Shown one piece after another: positions 12,829 to 20,739 of a DNA stretch of 64,000 nt. Numbering within the stretch: position 1 is the stretch's first letter; each line of letters begins with the position of its first letter. The notes beneath the pieces were generated by a model. The model ran no database searches. It worked only from the letters and a program-made list of their open reading frames with translations, and was not told the DNA's origin. This DNA is from Candidatus Poribacteria bacterium (GTDB taxonomy: Bacteria > Poribacteria > WGA-4E > WGA-3G): NCBI GenBank assembly GCA_963663765.2, contig CAXXUA010000013.1, forward strand, positions 512,001 through 576,000, read 5' to 3'. The position numbers were made by a program, and so were the translations under genes.

Positions 12829-13791
12829 TTGATGCAACTAAAAGAAAATAAAATTAAATATCTACAAACAGATATTTTCGCTTCAACTCAAAAAGATCTG
12901 TTTTTGTATTCACTCAGAAGCCAAGGTAAGTATAAATACGCGCGTTACAGAGGACTCCCACTGCGGTATGCTGGTGGGAAAAGTCTTGGGGTAGGGTATA
13001 TTTTAGAGCAAATCCCCAATAGATTGGAAAAACTTGTATCACCATTTATGGGGGGTGGTGCTGTTGAAATTGCATGTGCAAAAGAACTCAATATACCAGT
13101 TTGTGCTTATGACATCTTTGACATCCTCACCAACTATTGGCAAATTCAACTTTCTTCTGGCTGTGATTTAGCAGAGGAACTTGCACAATGGCAACCTACA
13201 AAAGAACAGTATACTGAGATAAAGAGTCACCTTAAAGCACATTGGACAGGTGAAAAACTCATCACCGATCCATTAGTATTAGCCTCACATTATTGGTTTA
13301 ATCACAATCTCTCTTACGGACCAGGTTTTCTCGGATGGATGTCAAAGATATATGAATCAGTTGAAAAATATGAACGGTCGCAGCTGATAGTGAGGAATTT
13401 CAGGTGTCCGAATTTGTCTGTCAAGACTGGACGATTTGAGGAAACGCTCCCATTACATACAGATGATTTTCTGTATTGCGACCCACCCTATTATCTTGAT
13501 GAAGGGGAAATGTTTCGTGGTATCTATCCGCAGCGAAACTTCCCTGTCCACCACAAGGGCTTTAACCATGTGTTGTTGCGTGATTTACTCCATAGTCACA
13601 ATTCAGGATTCGTCCTTTCATATAACGATTGCAATACAATCCGTAAATGGTATTCTGACTACAGAATCCTTGAAGTCGCATGGCAATACACTTTGGGACA
13701 AGGGGAAACACGGATTGGAAAAAATCGCAGCGAAAATGGCACAAACCATGTTAAGCGATCCCATGAACTATTGATTGTAAAGGATTATTAA
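12829..13791 (+). CDS. DNA adenine methyltransferase (Dam/D12 class), solitary
   Basis: LRYAGGKS, SPFMGGGAVE and catalytic DPPY motifs. Confidence 0.9.
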   Translation: MMQLKENKIKYLQTDIFASTQKDLFLYSLRSQGKYKYARYRGLPLRYAGGKSLGVGYILEQIPNRLEKLVSPFMGGGAVEIACAKELNIPVCAYDIFDILTNYWQIQLSSGCDLAEELAQWQPTKEQYTEIKSHLKAHWTGEKLITDPLVLASHYWFNHNLSYGPGFLGWMSKIYESVEKYERSQLIVRNFRCPNLSVKTGRFEETLPLHTDDFLYCDPPYYLDEGEMFRGIYPQRNFPVHHKGFNHVLLRDLLHSHNSGFVLSYNDCNTIRKWYSDYRILEVAWQYTLGQGETRIGKNRSENGTNHVKRSHELLIVKDY

Positions 13792-13794
13792 GTC

Positions 13795-15363
13795 TTAGCC
13801 TTCTGAACGGAGTTGAATGAGTTTATTGACGGCGTGGATATACGCCTTAGCACTTGCTTCAATAATATCTGTGCTTGCACCATGACCTGTAATGATGTGT
13901 CCGTTGTCTTGTACCTTCAGCGAGACTTCACCAATCGCATCTTCACCCTCTGTTACAGACCGAATCTGATAATCAATTAGATTGAGTTTGATTTTGACAA
14001 TTTGATTAATTGCTTTGAAGGCTGCATCAACAGGACCATCACCAGTAGATGCGTTTTCAACGATTCCCTCTTCCGTGCGAATACCGATAGTGGTTGTTGG
14101 TGAAATCTTCGTCCCACTAACAACTTGGATGTAATCCAATTCAAAAACTGAAGGTATCACTCGAATCTCGTCACTCATAATTGCTTCAAGATCGGCATCA
14201 TGTATCTCTTTTTTCTTATCCGCTAAACTTAGGAATCTTTCGTATACCTTCTCTAACTGCTCTTGATCCAGTTCATAGCCGAGTTCATTAAGTTTGTGTC
14301 TCAGGGCATTTCTACCGGAACGAGGGCTGAGTATGAGTTGACTCTCTTTCCAACCAATCTCTTGCGGGTCAATGATTTCAAATGTGACACGCGACTTGAT
14401 GATCCCATCCTGATGTATCCCAGAACTGTGTGCAAATGCATTTTCCCCAACGATAGCCTTATTCGGTTGCACAATAATCCCCATAGTCCGGCTGACTCGT
14501 CGACTAATTGGCACAATTTCTTTTGCATTAATTTCGGTATAATAACCCTTATAGTAATCTCGACGGGTTCGTATCGCCATCACCACCTCTTCTAAGGAGG
14601 TGTTCCCAGCACGTTCACCAAGACCGTTGATAGTGCACTCTACTTGCCTTGCCCCGTTCTCAATTGCGATAAGACTATTTGCAACAGCTAATCCCAAATC
14701 GTTATGGCAGTGAACACTAATGACTGCATCATCTATATTTGAAACGTTTTCCTTAATTCCTGCAATGAGTCCGCCAAATTCGGAGGGTACCGTCCAACCA
14801 ACAGTTTCAGGGATATTTACGACAGTTGCACCCTCAGCGATAGTTGCTTCAACCACTTTATAGAGATACGATAATTCAGTGCGACCCGCATCCATCGGTG
14901 AAAACTCAACTGTCGCATCAGGATGATCTTTGCATAAACTTTTTGCATAAGCGACAGCATCCACTGCCATTTCCAAAGTTCTTTCTGGAGTTGTTCGCGT
15001 AATGCGTTCCATGTGAATGTTTGATGTACCAACAAAGGTATGGATTCGGGCACGTTGTGCGTCCTGAATGGCTTTCCAAGCAGCCGTAATGTCTTTTTCG
15101 ACGACGCGTGAAAGCGCACAAATTTCTGGTCCCTTGACTTCATGCGCAATGCGTTGCACAGCATCAAAATCACCCGGAGACGAAATTGGAAATCCTGCTT
15201 CTATTACATCTACATTTAATCTTGCAAGGTGCTTGGCAATTTCAAACTTTTCTTCAATACCCAATGCAGCACCGGGTGTTTGTTCAGCGTCGCGGAGTGT
15301 TGTATCAAAAATGTAGACCTTTTCTTGGTTAGATGCGAAATCTTCCACGGTTGTGTCCTCCAA
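13795..15363 (-). CDS. leuA: 2-isopropylmalate synthase
   Basis: FDTTLRDAEQ, HCHNDLG, GERAGN, HSSGIHQDG, C-terminal regulatory domain GDGPVDA. Confidence 0.95.
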   Translation of the reverse strand: MEDTTVEDFASNQEKVYIFDTTLRDAEQTPGAALGIEEKFEIAKHLARLNVDVIEAGFPISSPGDFDAVQRIAHEVKGPEICALSRVVEKDITAAWKAIQDAQRARIHTFVGTSNIHMERITRTTPERTLEMAVDAVAYAKSLCKDHPDATVEFSPMDAGRTELSYLYKVVEATIAEGATVVNIPETVGWTVPSEFGGLIAGIKENVSNIDDAVISVHCHNDLGLAVANSLIAIENGARQVECTINGLGERAGNTSLEEVVMAIRTRRDYYKGYYTEINAKEIVPISRRVSRTMGIIVQPNKAIVGENAFAHSSGIHQDGIIKSRVTFEIIDPQEIGWKESQLILSPRSGRNALRHKLNELGYELDQEQLEKVYERFLSLADKKKEIHDADLEAIMSDEIRVIPSVFELDYIQVVSGTKISPTTTIGIRTEEGIVENASTGDGPVDAAFKAINQIVKIKLNLIDYQIRSVTEGEDAIGEVSLKVQDNGHIITGHGASTDIIEASAKAYIHAVNKLIQLRSEG

Positions 15364-15428
15364 AGATTAACACGTACATTGGCAATATAATATCTAAATC
15401 ATGAAAAACAATAAAAATAGTCTTTCTA

Positions 15429-16445
15429 TTATATCTCTCGTCCAACTGCAATAGCGATCGGTTTTAGTTCCTGCATGAGTTTTTGGAATTGATCTGGGAA
15501 CAGAGATTGTGCTCCGTCACCCGTCATAGAATTATCCGGGTCGTGATGCACTTCTAATAAGAGTCCATCTGCGCCGGCAGCGACCGACGCTTTTGTCATA
15601 TCACTCACGAGACCACGGATACCAGTACCGTGACTGGGATCAACGACAATCGGAAGATGACTTAATTGATGAATTACTGGCACTGCGTTAAGGTCAAGTG
15701 TATTACGTGTATGTGTTTCAAAGGTGCGGATTCCACGTTCACAGAGAATAACATCTGAATTCCCTTCAGAGAGTATATATTCTGCTGCAAGTAGCCACTC
15801 TTCAAATGTGGCAGACATGCCTCTCTTCAAGATGACTGGTTTCTTTGCGCGTCCCACTTCTCGCAACAGATAGAAATTGGTCATATTTCGTGTACCAAGT
15901 TGAAAAATATCGGTGTGTTCTCCGACCAGATCCACTTCATTCGGTGTCATTACTTCAGTGACGATGCCTAAGCCAGTTTCCTGTTTGGCGGTTACTAACA
16001 TCTTTAAAGCTTCTTCCCCAAAACCTTGGAAACTATAGGGACCGGTGCGAGGTTTAAAGGCACCACCTCTAATAAATTCTGCTCCAGCCTTTTTCACTTG
16101 TTTAGCAATAGTCACTATCTGTTCAGTACTTTCCACGGCACATGGTCCAGCCATCACTGAAAGTTTGCGTCCACCAATCTTGGTGCCATTGACAGCGATA
16201 ACCGTGGGAGTGCCTCTAAACTGACGACAGGCAAGTTTATAAGGAGCAGTGATTGGCATGGTCCTTTCAACGCCAGACATGGACTCCATCGGAATATCGC
16301 CTAACAATGTTTTGTCTCCTATTACACCGATGATGGTGCGTGTTTCGCCAATTGTTATCTGTGCTTTCAACCCTACACCTTCAATCCTCTTGACAATTGC
16401 GTTGATCTGATCAGAAGTTGCATCCGGTTTAGTAACGATTACCAT
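15429..16445 (-). CDS. aroF: 3-deoxy-7-phosphoheptulonate (DAHP) synthase, type I-beta with N-terminal regulatory domain
   Basis: AGPCAVES, RGGAFKPRT, LCERGIR, DPSHGTG motifs. Confidence 0.94.
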   Translation of the reverse strand: MVIVTKPDATSDQINAIVKRIEGVGLKAQITIGETRTIIGVIGDKTLLGDIPMESMSGVERTMPITAPYKLACRQFRGTPTVIAVNGTKIGGRKLSVMAGPCAVESTEQIVTIAKQVKKAGAEFIRGGAFKPRTGPYSFQGFGEEALKMLVTAKQETGLGIVTEVMTPNEVDLVGEHTDIFQLGTRNMTNFYLLREVGRAKKPVILKRGMSATFEEWLLAAEYILSEGNSDVILCERGIRTFETHTRNTLDLNAVPVIHQLSHLPIVVDPSHGTGIRGLVSDMTKASVAAGADGLLLEVHHDPDNSMTGDGAQSLFPDQFQKLMQELKPIAIAVGREI

Positions 16446-16501
16446 ATTCTTGAATTCCCTCCGACAACATCCGTTTGTAATTACAATGTTGGATAATTGA
16501 T

Positions 16502-16540
16502 AAAAAATAACCCAACATCGAAATACTCTCGACGCTGGGT
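16502..16540 (-). terminator. Intrinsic terminator (attenuator) upstream of the DAHP synthase gene
   Basis: Minus-strand RNA ACCCAGCGUCGA-GAGUAUU-UCGAUGUUGGGU then UAUUUUUU. The 12-bp stem has two G-U pairs that form only on the minus strand. Confidence 0.88.
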
Positions 16541-16586
16541 AGTGATGAATGAGACCAATTAATACATTTTCAATTGAACTTTAGAA

Positions 16587-16703
16587 CTAACACCACCTAC
16601 CGTCGGAGTACCTAAACGGGTACAACCGGAACGTAAACAACGTCCAAAGGTAAAATAAAAAACTAAATATTGTATAGATGGTAGTGTGTTCAAGCTTTTG
16701 CAT
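16587..16703 (-). CDS. Attenuator leader peptide MQKLEHTTIYTIFSFLFYLWTLFTFRLYPFRYSDGRWC (38 aa)
   Basis: Hand translation: ATG at 16703, TAG at 16589-16587, GAAGGT RBS. It has 6 Phe, 4 Tyr, 2 Trp and 5 Leu codons, and its 3' end is complementary to the terminator 5' arm. Confidence 0.85.
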   Translation of the reverse strand: MQKLEHTTIYTIFSFLFYLWTLFTFRLYPFRYSDGRWC

Positions 16704-16804
16704 TACAGAAAAACCTTCGTACCTAATTTTAAAGTACGTTCTCTATAAACATATTAACGTTCAACTAAACGATTCGTTTAAATAAAAATGAAATTATTTT
16801 TTAT

Positions 16805-16833
16805 ATTATAACATATTTACATTGTTAAGTCAA
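16805..16833 (-). promoter_or_regulatory. Sigma70 promoter of the leader-aroF-leuA transcript
   Basis: Minus strand TTGACT-17 nt-TATAAT with extended -10 TG. Confidence 0.75.
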
Positions 16834-16848
16834 CTATTATTAATATTG

Positions 16849-17357
16849 CAGGCATATTCAGTTCTAAGAGTTTTCTGTTATTGAGATTTACTGAAAGTTA
16901 ATACACAGGTTCGGTTTCCTAACCGAACTTTATACATCAATTTTAGATTATTGAAACATGAACATCGCTCTTTAGTCCCGTAGGGACGATATGTTTTTAG
17001 AAACGAATACCCCCTAGTTCTTTAGTCTCGTAGGGACAATATGTTTATTCTTCTATGTCGTTCCTACGGAACTCAATTGGGGTTGAAAACATTTTCTATA
17101 AACATATCGTCCCTACGGGACTAAAGACATGGACAAGATGGTATCACATAAAATTAACGACATAGCAAAATATTATCAAAAATATTGAAAACTGAATAAC
17201 CCTGTTATCATAGCGTCTAATTTGAGAATAGAAATGACTATATCAGCAATCTGTCAGAATAATTTATATGCACAATCTGCCAGAATGTGCTACAACTACA
17301 CGCACAATCTGGCAGAATGTCTATTATTGGCGAAGGTATTGAAACTGAATAACCCTG
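16849..17357. mobile_element. Composite MITE: family B element (16849-17204) + captured family A right half + second B right end, with 9-bp TSD
   Basis: Ends CAGGCATATTCAGTT / AACTGAATAACCCTG; TTAATATTG on both sides (16840-16848, 17358-17366); internal CTTTAGTCCCGTAGGGACGATATGTTT inverted repeats; close copy at 44579-44938. Confidence 0.75.
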
Positions 17358-17522
17358 TTAATATTGTTTCCAGGGAGTGTAAAGTTCTTCGCATGGTATT
17401 ATAGGATTCAAATTGCTATATCGGGTTGAAAACCCCTCCTACAAGAAAGTTGCTCCTTAAGTTCACACCAATAGGTATCGCAAACTTAACCCAAGCTACA
17501 TTAAATTTTTGCTGTTTCAATT

Positions 17523-18764
17523 TTATCCTACGCCAACCACAACGCGGTGATACCGTTTTTTACCAGCACGAAGAAGCAATGCATTTTCTTCCAAAAGTCT
17601 TGCATCAACGACAGTATCTATTGCTTTATACTGTTTCTCATTGATGTATGCTCCACCTTGTTGAATTAAACGGCGCGCTTCACTTTTTGATGTGGATAAA
17701 CCGACTTCATGAAACAATTCTATGATTGGAATCCCCGCATTCAGTCTTTCAATTGGGATGTTAGTAGTTGGCATCGCATCAAGATCAGGTCCACCCCCAC
17801 CGAAAGCGGCACGTGAAGTTGCTTGTGCTTTTTCTGCTTCATCTTTACCGTGAGCCAGTTTTGTCGCTTGGTATGCAAGCATCGCTTTTGCTTCTCGTAT
17901 CTCATCATGTTCTAACCTTCCAAGCCGTCTCACTTCATCCATTGGCAAAAAGGTAAAATATGCTAAGAACCGCTCAACATCCCGATCATCAACGTTGATC
18001 CAATACTGATAGAATTGATAGGGTGAAGTGCGGTTAGCATCAAGCCATATTGCCCCCCCAGCAGTTTTTCCCATTTTGGCACCACCAGCAGTTGTAAGAA
18101 GTGGAAAAGTCAACCCATGAACGCGTTCACCCTCAATCCTACGCACCAGATCGACACCTGCCAGAATATTACCCCATTGATCGTCACCACCAAGTTGAAG
18201 GACGCACTGATATTCTTGGAAAAGGGATAAATAATCGTAAGCTTGCAGCAACTGGTAATTGAATTCAAGGAATGAAAGTCCCATTTCACGTTCAAGTCTC
18301 TGTCTATATCCCTCGGCACGTATCATTTCGTTAACGCGGAAATGCTTACCAATATCTCGTAGAAACTCAATGTAATTTAGTGAAAGCAACCATTCTGCGT
18401 TGTTTAAAAAAAGTCCCGCAGTATTATCTAATTCAAGATAACGTTGTAGCTGTTTGAGGATACTTGCACCGTTTTCTTCAACTTCTGCTGCAGAGATCAT
18501 GGGACGCATTTCAGTTTTATCGGATGGGTCACCAATCAACGTAGTACCACCACCGATAATTGCTATCGGTTTATGTCCAGCGCGTTGTAAATGTGCCATC
18601 GCCATAATTGGCACAAGGCTACCAGCATGCAAACTATCTGCAGTCGGATCAAAACCTACATAATAGGTAATCTGTTTGTTTGACAGCAATTGTGAGATGT
18701 TTTCTTCATTAGTACACTGTTGAACGAATCCGCGTTCCTTTAGTGCTTCAAAGACATTTGACAT
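17523..18764 (-). CDS. tyrS: Tyrosine--tRNA ligase
   Basis: GFDPTADSLHAGS (HIGH-like), QLGGDDQWGNI, KMGKT, C-terminal S4 domain. Confidence 0.96.
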   Translation of the reverse strand: MSNVFEALKERGFVQQCTNEENISQLLSNKQITYYVGFDPTADSLHAGSLVPIMAMAHLQRAGHKPIAIIGGGTTLIGDPSDKTEMRPMISAAEVEENGASILKQLQRYLELDNTAGLFLNNAEWLLSLNYIEFLRDIGKHFRVNEMIRAEGYRQRLEREMGLSFLEFNYQLLQAYDYLSLFQEYQCVLQLGGDDQWGNILAGVDLVRRIEGERVHGLTFPLLTTAGGAKMGKTAGGAIWLDANRTSPYQFYQYWINVDDRDVERFLAYFTFLPMDEVRRLGRLEHDEIREAKAMLAYQATKLAHGKDEAEKAQATSRAAFGGGGPDLDAMPTTNIPIERLNAGIPIIELFHEVGLSTSKSEARRLIQQGGAYINEKQYKAIDTVVDARLLEENALLLRAGKKRYHRVVVGVG

Positions 18765-19113
18765 GGATGAATGTTCCTTCCAAGAATATAACCGTTTTTT
18801 AATAAAATACCATAGATGCGTTGGTTTGTCAAATCTGTTTGTTATGGGGTTGTGGGGAAGTGTGACGTTCTTGGCATGATGTAGCCTGTATCACGGATTA
18901 CACCAAATCAAAGACATGAAGACATTTTGGCATTCCCCAAATTACGCAGATTTCGCGGATAAAACCTCTACATCTAATCGTATTCCATAGATAACGTTTA
19001 TTCTATGCAATAAGTTATCATGCAAGTGTCTTATTGATTTTCTAACAACAATATTTGATTATATGGTAAACTACAATTCAAACACTGTGTATCAAACGAA
19101 ATGTATCATGAGA

Positions 19114-20739
19114 ATGTTTGGTTCAATGATGACTTATCCCTTGAATATCTCACAGATTTTGGAGCATGCACATCTTATTCATGCGGATAAACGCGTTTAC
19201 ACATTACTACCCAACAGTAAGGTGCATACTTATACCTACGCACAACTACACCATCGTGTTAAACAACTTGCAAATGCTATGACATCCTTGGGGATTAGCG
19301 GTGGGGATAGGGTCGCAACTTTTGCATCTAACACATTTCAGCACTTAGAACTTTACTACGCCGTCCCGCTTATGGGAGCAGTTGTGCACCCGCTTAATAT
19401 TCGCCTTTCACCAATTCAATTATCAAAGATAGTAAACGAAGCAGATGGCAAACTTATCTTTGTTGACGGTCAATTTTCAGATCAGTTTGCGAAACTTCAA
19501 CAAGAGATTGACTGCAGACATATCGTCTACTTTAATAATAATAGTGAATATTCATTGACTGACCCGTCAATTCATTATGAACAGTTTATAGCTGAAACAC
19601 ATAATGATTGCGTTTCTGAAATACAGGACGAAAATAGTGCGATAGCATTATGTTACACAAGCGGCACAGATGGTGAACCGAAAGGTGTTCTCTACACACA
19701 CCGCTCCATGTTCCTTCATACATTGGCAGTCAACCAAGCAGATGTGTTCGGTATAACCGAAGCAGATGTCGTAATGCCACTTGTTCCGATGTTTCATGCG
19801 ATGGGATGGGGGTTACCTTATGCAGCACTGTTTGCTGGAGCAGATATTGTCCTACATGGGAATAATAATCACAAAATCGTTGACTTAATTGCAGAAACGG
19901 GCGTTACTGTTGCAGCAGGTGTTCCATCTGTATGGTCAAGACTCTATCCTGAATTACAAAAAAGAAAACGTGAAATCTCATCACTACATCGTCTCATTGT
20001 CGGTGGCGAACCGATGTCGCCAACACTCATAGAAGGATACGAGAAAGAACTCGGTATTGAAGTTCGGCACGCATGGGGTATGACCGAAATGTCACCGACT
20101 GGTACGTTCTGTACACTGCGTAAAACACACCAGAATCTTCCTGATGCTGAAAAATGGAATATCAAAGCAATGCAAGGCAGACCTATTACCGGCGTTCAGA
20201 TTCGCATTGTGAATGAAAACTGTGCCGAACTACCTTGGGACGGGAAAACAATCGGGGAGTTACAGGTCAGGAGTCCGTGGACTGCAGGCAGCTACTATAA
20301 GACTAAACCTTCAACTGAGCATTTCACAGAAGATGGTTGGTTACGGACAGGTGATCTTGCTACGATCAACAAGGAAGGCTACATGCACATCGTTGATCGT
20401 GTAAAGGCTATTATCCGCAGTGGTGGTGAATCTATCTCTACTACTGCACTTCAAAGAGTCTTACTAACACACCCACAAGTTGTAGAGGCTGCTGTCATCG
20501 GTGTACCCAATAAAAATTGGGGTGAACGGCCTATTGCTGCTGTTGTTATCGCATCGGATACAAATGAGAATATATCAGAAGTGTTGAAGCGACATCTTGC
20601 TACTGAGTTTCCTAAATTCTGGATACCCGACAGATTTATTATTGTTGATGAAATACCTAAAACGAGTGTAGAAAAAATAGATAAGAATGCTATCAGGCAA
20701 TTGATTGTACCAGAGTTTAATATCGGTTCTAAGGGGTAG
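19114..20739 (+). CDS. Acyl-CoA ligase (AlkK/DmdB-like medium/long-chain fatty acid-CoA ligase); start may be 19063
   Basis: YTSGTDGEPKG, PMFHAMGWG, AWGMTE, GWLRTGD motifs. Confidence 0.88.
   Translation: MFGSMMTYPLNISQILEHAHLIHADKRVYTLLPNSKVHTYTYAQLHHRVKQLANAMTSLGISGGDRVATFASNTFQHLELYYAVPLMGAVVHPLNIRLSPIQLSKIVNEADGKLIFVDGQFSDQFAKLQQEIDCRHIVYFNNNSEYSLTDPSIHYEQFIAETHNDCVSEIQDENSAIALCYTSGTDGEPKGVLYTHRSMFLHTLAVNQADVFGITEADVVMPLVPMFHAMGWGLPYAALFAGADIVLHGNNNHKIVDLIAETGVTVAAGVPSVWSRLYPELQKRKREISSLHRLIVGGEPMSPTLIEGYEKELGIEVRHAWGMTEMSPTGTFCTLRKTHQNLPDAEKWNIKAMQGRPITGVQIRIVNENCAELPWDGKTIGELQVRSPWTAGSYYKTKPSTEHFTEDGWLRTGDLATINKEGYMHIVDRVKAIIRSGGESISTTALQRVLLTHPQVVEAAVIGVPNKNWGERPIAAVVIASDTNENISEVLKRHLATEFPKFWIPDRFIIVDEIPKTSVEKIDKNAIRQLIVPEFNIGSKG

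Follow-up and report, generated by a model that had tools for sequence, protein, structure and literature searches.

What decides whether aroF and leuA are transcribed in Candidatus Poribacteria, a lineage of sponge symbionts, and which amino acids would enter into that decision? The question is raised by a stretch of 64,000 nucleotides (hereafter the window) from a metagenome-assembled genome (MAG) of this group (assembly GCA_963663765.2, contig CAXXUA010000013.1, positions 512,001 to 576,000), in which the genes for a DAHP synthase (aroF) and a 2-isopropylmalate synthase (leuA) follow a short reading frame that is crowded with aromatic codons and ends just upstream of a terminator-like hairpin. 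A preliminary description made from the letters of this stretch had read the arrangement as an attenuator, and comparison with related loci upholds that reading, in that the layout recurs across the phylum with compensatory changes. The region is, at a probability of roughly 0.85 as judged by sequence comparison, a leader-peptide (ribosome-mediated) attenuator of aroF-leuA that reads aromatic codons. It probably senses mainly Tyr and Phe, with a single Trp codon in the clade of the window, and Leu as well.

A putative attenuator upstream of aroF

The leader element lies on the minus strand, and its parts are given here in window coordinates. The leader open reading frame (ORF; 16703-16587) comprises 38 codons and a TAG stop and encodes the peptide MQKLEHTTIYTIFSFLFYLWTLFTFRLYPFRYSDGRWC, with six Phe, four Tyr, two Trp and five Leu codons. 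Among 10,173 ATG-initiated ORFs of 33-43 codons in the six frames of the window genome, only 27 contain at least 12 Phe, Tyr and Trp codons in sum. Downstream of this ORF is a predicted intrinsic terminator (16540-16502), composed of a stem-loop of 14 pairs, six of them G-C (16540-16510; -19.5 kcal/mol when folded alone), followed by the U-tract TATTTTTT (16509-16502). The hairpin resides 57 nt 5′ of the DAHP synthase ATG at 16445, against an earlier estimate of about 55 nt. The last leader codons contain the sequence CUCCGACGGUAGGUGGUG (region 2; 16608-16591), which terminates 2 nt before the stop codon and is the candidate 5′ strand of an antiterminator. Its predicted partner, CACUACCCAGCGUCGAGAG (region 3; 16544-16526), includes the 5′ arm of the terminator and can thus pair either with region 2 or with the terminator 3′ arm (region 4). 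In folds of this segment, 16610-16591 pairs with 16544-16524 at -25.2 kcal/mol, and the two strands as a duplex give -20.6 kcal/mol. Upstream of the ORF is a putative sigma-70-type promoter (16833-16805), with TTGACT, a 17-nt spacer and a TG-extended TATAAT, matching the consensus at 11 of 12 positions. The promoter, ORF, codon counts, terminator and pairing of the preliminary description are each present on the minus strand where it had placed them. The leader as a whole also folds more stably than its shuffled counterparts (z = -3.71; 0 of 100 shuffles equally good).

Both predicted helices appear to have been maintained by compensatory change. Pairs were counted on an alignment of 77 sequences using structures derived from the window sequence. 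The terminator helix is paired in 92.3% of cells, with changes on both sides at 6 of 14 pairs, and the antiterminator helix in 79.5%, with changes on both sides at 9 of 16; none of 500 shuffles was as good in either case, and slid controls gave 26-48% and 25-51%, respectively, although these counts are inflated by the window-derived structures and by the kinship of the sequences, which overstates their independence. One antiterminator pair, for example, is CG in 60 sequences and UA in 13. Another involves column 160, a nucleotide of the terminator, where a C-to-U change is coupled to a G-to-A change in the antiterminator partner (GC 36, AU 26, GU 8), while the terminator partner of the same column remains G or turns to A. 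Column 160 therefore co-varies with both of its partners, which is, on the alignment, the behavior expected of a base that pairs alternately with two others. The 2:3 pairing has a free energy of -17 kcal/mol or lower in 74 of the 77 sequences (median -21.5), and in a distant clade it occurs in a shifted register, GAUGGUGGGC at the end of the leader being identical to the terminator 3′ arm. The mutually exclusive antiterminator that had been proposed from the window alone is thus borne out by folding and by compensatory changes, and the covarying stems that had been suggested as a check upstream of DAHP synthase orthologs are found in both helices.

The position of region 2 relative to the reading frame is likewise conserved, in that 59 of 77 sequences have no more than 4 nt between its end and that of the stop codon. 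The probability of the 2:3 pairing, P(2:3), was modeled on a window transcript ended before the terminator 3′ arm, with the ribosome footprint masked; this setting replaced an equilibrium fold containing the whole terminator, which is uninformative for a kinetic switch. With the masked ribosome at any of codons 1-28, P(2:3) is 0.66-0.99; once the ribosome has reached codon 31, and onward to the stop, the value is 0.00-0.01. Given this profile, a completed leader would block the antiterminator, whereas a stall at the Tyr, Phe, Trp or Leu codons between positions 10 and 28 would not. The putative regulatory codons occupy positions 10-30 (16676-16614) and read Y10, F13, F15, L16, F17, Y18, L19, W20, L22, F23, F25, L27, Y28 and F30. 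In the model, then, a ribosome that stalls at the aromatic codons does not cover the antiterminator strand, which agrees with the earlier suggestion that stalling in the F13-F25 block would release it.

These features suggest the following course of events. Transcription would begin at the conserved sigma-70-type promoter, and a ribosome would translate the 38-codon leader. With ample charged tRNAs, the ribosome would reach the last codons or the stop and cover region 2 (16608-16591), so that regions 3 and 4 could form the terminator (16540-16502) and RNA polymerase would stop before aroF. With a hungry codon among codons 10-28, the ribosome would stall, region 2 would stay free and pair with region 3, the terminator would fail to form, and aroF and leuA would be transcribed. 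Specificity would reside in the codon content, with Tyr first and Phe next, a single conserved Trp codon in the window clade, and Leu probably as a second, cross-pathway input that matches leuA. Termination, leader translation and the starvation response are what we infer from parts whose presence, conservation, codon bias and, for both helices, covariation are documented by sequence comparison. Repeats amounting to 50-150 nt separate the terminator from aroF in several clades, an arrangement that speaks for termination of transcription and against masking of the ribosome-binding site of aroF.

Two further structural elements are less well defined. A small hairpin (16576-16555) in the loop of the antiterminator is seen in folds, and its sequence is not conserved. 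The sequence GAACACACUACCAUC (region 1; 16691-16677), corresponding to codons 5-9, is a candidate anti-antiterminator strand that could pair with region 2. Both the minimum free energy fold of the full leader and an RNAalifold consensus computed from 27 sequences of the window clade contain this 1:2 helix. It is strong in the type-2 clade and could account for the conserved N-terminal “EHTT” of the peptide.

Distribution, codon content and retuned copies

The element is not peculiar to the window. The 80 best relatives of the DAHP synthase share 73-95% identity with it, and all belong to Poribacteria or uncultured MAGs. A plain motif search recovered a hairpin followed by a T-run from the window and, of the 79 loci for which upstream sequence exists, from 76; it missed L012, L056 and L080, and the L012 terminator was recovered by a looser regular expression. 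A covariance model spanning region 2 through the U-tract, termed R1 and representing a GGUGG-type region 2 strand with a CCCA...UGGG terminator, has a match upstream of aroF in the window and in all 79 of these loci. The window belongs to the seed alignment, so that its score of 99.6 bits is a match by construction; the independent matches are L012 (81.2 bits), L056 (58.9 bits) and L080 (36.3 bits), which lie outside the model, together with the paralogous copies considered below. R1 has matches in 139 of 151 sampled genomes of the phylum, and in 124 of the 131 of high quality. In the three best-sampled families it matches 99 of 99, 10 of 10 and 26 of 26 genomes, and it was found in 0 of 10 genomes searched from four other families. 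By this comparison, the layout of promoter, leader ORF, antiterminator strand at the ORF end, terminator and aroF-leuA is conserved across the phylum with compensatory changes.

The coding character of the leader is conserved along with the structure. Each of the 77 sequences examined (a set to which the leader ORF of L056 does not belong) has a homologous ORF that is open, with lengths ranging from 37 to 75 codons. Across the 22 codons that precede region 2 in these sequences (1694 codons), and relative to the genome background, Tyr accounts for 19.1% of residues (5.7-fold), Phe for 12.2% (3.0-fold), Leu for 26.7% (2.9-fold) and Trp for 2.6% (1.9-fold), and all other residues are at 1.0-fold or below. 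At least two Tyr codons occur in 77 of 77 leaders, at least four Leu in 72, at least two Phe in 67 and at least one Trp in 40. The F/Y/W/L-rich leader ORF for which a check in orthologs had been suggested is therefore present, with Tyr, Phe and Leu the most enriched. On these sequence grounds, Tyr is the universally conserved signal and Phe the second. The proposal that a single leader reads all three aromatic end products is supported for Tyr and Phe; as regards Trp, one codon is conserved in the window clade (23 of 27 sequences) and it is mostly absent elsewhere.

The pattern is sharpest in a clade of 34 sequences (the LY clade), where the frame reads (L/F)-Y five times immediately before region 2. 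Four Tyr columns are invariant in 34 of 34 sequences while mixing TAT and TAC, and the Leu columns use three to five synonymous codons. Across the three codon positions, column entropy is 0.374, 0.111 and 0.769, which, together with the synonymous drift, indicates that selection acts on the meaning of the codons rather than on the RNA sequence. Outside the Y/F/L pattern, the peptide is not conserved between clades. In members of the same clade (L025-L063; for example L039:2830-3000 and L046), the space that separates the terminator from the ribosome-binding site of aroF is occupied by tandem repeats with a unit of about 35 nt, GCAGCTTGCAAACCGAAAACTTGCTATTAAGAAGGCGGT, each of which ends in a GGCGG- or GGAGG-like motif, and by other inserts of 50-150 nt.

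Additional copies of the element in Poribacteria resemble the aroF leader in structure while differing in codon content. Genomes of two other families of the phylum contain two to five R1 matches, and 19 extra copies were examined. Five are located just 5′ of tyrS (L066, L068, L069, L071 and L072, at about 1270-1387) and have Tyr-rich leaders such as ...RYLYKFYW.... One (L076:4175-4277) is between aroF and a gene of the 2-isopropylmalate synthase (IPMS) family and has a Leu-rich leader, ...LLTLGLRLDLALLRLRRL.... Three precede leuS (L101, L105 and L111), with leaders such as ...YLNLALLRLRL... and a LeuRS editing domain downstream, and three precede ileS-like class I synthetase genes (L100, L102 and L110), with Ile-rich leaders such as MPPSIGIAILIIIIR. 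Another three precede ileS-like class I synthetase genes and have no clearly nameable leader. One copy (L108) has a Leu-rich leader and no downstream ORF of at least 120 codons within the fetched stretch, one (L106) precedes a ureidoglycolate-lyase-like gene and has no convincing leader, and the remaining two precede DAHP synthase copies of one genome. As judged from these sequences, codon content follows the regulated gene on a shared RNA chassis, and this correspondence is strong comparative evidence for the ribosome as the sensor.

The two copies before DAHP synthase genes (L103 and L104, genome G061) repeat the same Y/L leader and chassis, in front of ORFs of 355 and 211 aa, the latter apparently truncated. 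This pair points to a recent duplication.

Within the window genome (G000), R1 matches the aroF copy only, apart from a palindromic reverse match to the same copy at E = 8.8, and two other leaders of related design are apparent. The first (L097:3594-3701, minus strand, contig C4) encodes ...SNDWHWWRS..., ending ...SNDWHWWRSDTSIWGCAR, in which the run Trp-His-Trp-Trp is followed by a hairpin and T-run just before hisI and then trpE. It represents a second mixed-pathway operon with a mixed leader in this genome. The second (L083:201-400, at about 26116-26315 of contig C3) encodes the Ile-rich sequence ...TIHIIIAIRR... (...HRTIHIIIAIRRAVVG), with the run I-H-I-I-I-A-I. A TTGACA/TATCAT promoter-like site lies upstream of this ORF, and a GC-rich hairpin and T-run lie 34 nt before the gene for a 1047-aa class I tRNA synthetase with a DUF5915 domain (IleRS type). 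The terminator of this ileS leader resembles the aroF chassis by eye, yet R1 has no match there. Generic scans of the genome, by motif regular expression or for a small ORF followed by a terminator and a gene (with or without an antiterminator filter), returned mostly noise, with only the aroF and ileS leaders prominent; of 15 annotated ORFs downstream of the candidates, only IleRS was relevant.

The signals for expression of the aroF leader are conserved to varying degrees. The TTGACT-17-TATAAT sequence is the top-scoring of eight promoter-like sites in a scan of 13500-19200, a region that overall has no enrichment of such sites (14.8 expected from shuffles). Of the 77 sequences, 49 have a promoter matching at least 10 of 12 positions in the 220 nt that precede the leader ATG, and 45 of these promoters bear the TG extension. 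The Shine-Dalgarno-like GAAGG (16718-16714) resides 10 nt 5′ of the leader ATG, relatives mostly have an AGG(A) motif at a comparable distance, and the aroF Shine-Dalgarno sequence, GGAGGG, has a similar spacing of 11 nt.

Upstream of the promoter, between it and tyrS, are three copies (16968-17124) of a palindromic unit, GTCCC(G/T)TAGGGAC, flanked by ATATG and CATAT. The unit recurs at many sites in the genome and resembles a dispersed repeat of the REP or MITE (repetitive extragenic palindrome or miniature inverted-repeat transposable element) type. It also causes the sole Rfam match in 14000-20000, a chance microRNA outside the leader.

Competing explanations and the place of leucine

Several observations weigh against the attenuator as described. 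In the window model, P(2:3) is 0.92 without any ribosome, and at equilibrium with the full terminator, the terminator is favored for nearly all placements of the ribosome, so that the choice has to be made kinetically, as it is in classical attenuators. The 1:2 helix required by the classical four-segment design is non-significant across clades relative to mononucleotide shuffles and shows almost no compensatory change. Because this helix is poorly supported and the 2:3 pairing forms without a ribosome, region 1 is treated as an optional, putative component. The leader Shine-Dalgarno sequence is weak, both in its GAAGG motif and in its 10-nt spacing. Codon-position periodicity is weak in the window clade (0.756, 0.656 and 0.803), and since Phe, Leu and Tyr codons are all U-rich, the bias could be partly compositional. 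In Streptomyces, the attenuator-like leaders of ilvB and leuA are reported to have behaved non-classically when mutated (PMC1262725). Among contigs assembled from RNA libraries of sponge metagenomes (Logan), two (16396-16848 and 16265-16698) run from the leader across the terminator into the first part of aroF; such contigs show neither RNA ends nor RNA levels and may stem from DNA carry-over, and one of the two extends to 16848, which is 5′ of the predicted transcription start.

The same data set has some further features. Runs X1 and X2 give identical tables and look like a single data set filed twice. Most of aroF and leuA is without contig cover in four runs, a gap that is not interpretable. 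Contigs of runs X3 and X5 end at 16698 and 16705, from 2 nt upstream to 5 nt inside the leader ATG, with adapter-like loose ends. Conceivably, an RNA 5′ end or a site of processing lies here, which would make the leader nearly leaderless; the loose ends are a weak hint of this at most.

The main question within the attenuator reading is whether Leu is an input, and here the genes downstream have to be considered. The aroF product (16445-15429, minus strand), a DAHP synthase with a ferredoxin-like N-terminal regulatory domain, is the only DAHP synthase detected in the genome. On the same strand, leuA (15363-13795 as the longest ORF) encodes a product that scores above the NCBIfam equivalog cut-offs and is thus a true 2-isopropylmalate synthase. 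The TTG at 15363 overlaps a GGAGG, and NCBIfam alignments start at residues 11-15, so that the GTG at 15348, 7-8 nt after the GGAGG, is the likelier start. The interval of 65 nt that had been given for the two genes is correct from the TTG and becomes about 80 nt from the likelier GTG. A site scan reported neither a terminator-like nor a promoter-like site on the minus strand in this gap. The leuA gene is directly 3′ of aroF in 75 of 80 related loci; in the remaining five it is further downstream (three loci), the locus is truncated (one), or a divergent IPMS-family gene stands instead (L076). The tyrS gene, which adjoins the aroF leader upstream on the minus strand, has no leader of its own in the window, only a promoter-like site about 40 nt upstream, and by eye neither a leader nor a terminator was seen at leuS of the window genome.

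The foremost competitor is an aromatic-only (Tyr/Phe) attenuator in which the Leu codons are U-rich hydrophobic filler and leuA either rides along or is separately controlled. The window itself lends this explanation some force, its leader having five Leu codons in 38, scattered and never consecutive, in a proteome where Leu is the most common residue (9.2%). Moreover, the “L” positions of the LY clade also hold F, W, M and V, loci without adjacent leuA (L070, L073, L076 and L081) have no fewer Leu codons, and where the chassis has a leader dedicated to Leu, the codons form dense runs (for example LALLRLRL) and do not alternate. Weighing in the other direction, the enrichment of Leu across relatives is on par with that of Phe and extends to nearly all leaders, the Leu columns are maintained through synonymous drift, the linkage of aroF and leuA is widespread, and the hisI-trpE and ileS leaders of the window genome are not Leu-rich in their regulatory parts. 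In addition, any hungry codon in the productive window must yield read-through, which is a reason to count Leu as an input wherever it occurs there. The coupling to leucine that had been suggested for the Leu codons is accordingly weak in the window (4 of 22 codons) and strong in relatives, and it draws further support from leuS and the IPMS-family gene, which are preceded by Leu-rich leaders of this chassis. On balance, the evidence leans slightly toward Leu as a selected input of the leader, and the aromatic-only explanation, while the less favored, retains an appreciable chance of being right.

A broader proposal can be built on the attenuator with a Leu input. Poribacteria would join the first enzymes of unrelated pathways in one operon (aroF with leuA; hisI with trpE), each under one bi-specific leader (Tyr/Phe with Leu; Trp with His), so that the leader acts as an OR-gate in which either shortage induces both pathways, a form of cis-encoded cross-pathway control. 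The switch would be one member of a modular chassis that is retuned by codon swaps (Ile, Leu, Tyr) before tRNA synthetase and biosynthetic genes. This proposal is tentative, its chances being a little short of even.

A different explanation is that the element is a general sensor of translation status, its terminator following overall ribosome coupling rather than particular amino acids. This idea draws on the model in which the 2:3 pairing forms without a ribosome and the 1:2 helix is poorly supported, so that any slow translation would lead to read-through. It is difficult to reconcile with retuned copies whose codon bias matches the downstream gene (Ile with ileS-like genes, Leu with leuS, Tyr with tyrS, and Trp and His with hisI-trpE) or with Tyr columns that are invariant despite synonymous drift, and we consider it improbable.

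Less probable still is a riboswitch, a T-box-like element or a protein-binding leader, in which a ligand, tRNA or protein selects the structure and the ORF is coincidental. The element does lie within a structured leader of roughly 300 nt, and its terminator and antiterminator sequences are unusually conserved, the CCC, GGG and T columns being invariant in the 77 sequences. Nevertheless, an Rfam cmscan of 14000-20000 at E values up to 1 gave no match to a leader, T-box or riboswitch family, the frame is always open although the ORF varies in length, and the coding-type periodicity and the agreement of codon content with the downstream gene in paralogous copies would be fortuitous if the ORF were.

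Finally, a gene for a small hydrophobic membrane peptide followed by an ordinary terminator unrelated to aroF regulation would fit the hydrophobicity of the peptide and its fairly conserved sequence in the window clade, and it is the least credible of these alternatives, as an ordinary terminator needs no conserved, co-varying complement upstream, the peptide diverges between clades outside the Y/F/L pattern, the element is always directly before aroF, and contigs from RNA libraries run through into that gene.

Relationship to known attenuators

The leader-peptide attenuator that is favored here for aroF-leuA can be compared with several established systems. In enterobacterial trpL, pheL-pheA and hisL, a promoter is followed by a short ORF with regulatory codons, mutually exclusive antiterminator and terminator structures, and a U-tract, and the Poribacteria element has the same set of parts. 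It differs in having no match to an Rfam leader family and in the overlap of region 2 with the end of the ORF. The regulatory codons occupy a long stretch between regions 1 and 2 rather than lying inside region 1, and the 1:2 helix is weak or clade-specific.

Leaders that respond to more than one amino acid are exemplified by the Escherichia coli ilvGMEDA (Ile/Leu/Val) and thr (Thr/Ile) operons, in which a single leader contains codons for several amino acids and a shortage of any of them causes read-through. Those leaders mix the products of one branched pathway, whereas the present one has Tyr and Phe together with Leu codons before aroF and leuA, genes of unrelated pathways. To our knowledge, cross-pathway coupling of this kind has not been described for classical attenuators. 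Should Leu prove to be a genuine input, aromatic and leucine synthesis would be coupled through one leader.

The T-box riboswitches of Firmicutes, found before aromatic and Leu genes, sense tRNA charging through a terminator/antiterminator switch. They do the same job, but there is no T-box match at the aroF leader, where sensing would proceed via a translated ORF.

Attenuation also operates at tRNA synthetase genes. One report mentions pheST attenuation as well as the pheL and trpL leaders (PMC11802643), and another mentions attenuators of trpS and leuS in Streptomyces (PMC1262725). The paralogous copies in Poribacteria resemble the pheM-pheST type, in that a putative attenuator with cognate codons precedes tyrS, leuS or ileS-like genes. 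The window element, by contrast, would control biosynthetic genes, and the window tyrS directly upstream has no leader.

The closest parallel is the aroR-aroF system of Corynebacterium glutamicum. A full-text literature search for attenuators in Poribacteria found no paper, and one for leader peptides of DAHP synthase or aromatic genes found the C. glutamicum case only. In that system, a leader peptide with Phe-Tyr-Phe precedes the DAHP synthase gene aroF, and read-through is reported to rise on ribosome stalling (Neshat et al. 2014, as summarized in PMC11802643 and PMC4046766); Tyr availability is reported to be without effect (PMC11802643). The preliminary description, which knew of no such combined attenuator in the lineage, thus overstated the novelty, as a Phe/Tyr leader before a DAHP synthase gene had been published. 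Both systems place mixed aromatic codons in a leader peptide upstream of this gene, a likeness that is drawn from the published description, not from the aroR sequence, and that concerns a different phylum. Set against aroR as so described, the Poribacteria leader is much longer (38 codons in the window), is dominated by Tyr and contains many Leu codons, and its operon adds leuA.

The mechanism itself is thus known, being textbook leader-peptide attenuation, and the interest of the Poribacteria element is in its spread through the phylum, in a chassis that can be retuned, and in the possibility that one leader couples two unrelated pathways. Ribosome-mediated attenuation would be a widespread control device in an uncultured phylum of sponge symbionts, and a single RNA chassis retuned to different amino acids offers a natural series, and a test bed, for the evolution of attenuator specificity. 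In practical terms, the element could help to annotate small ORFs and 5′ leaders better in MAGs of Poribacteria and could serve in the design of portable multi-input amino acid sensors.

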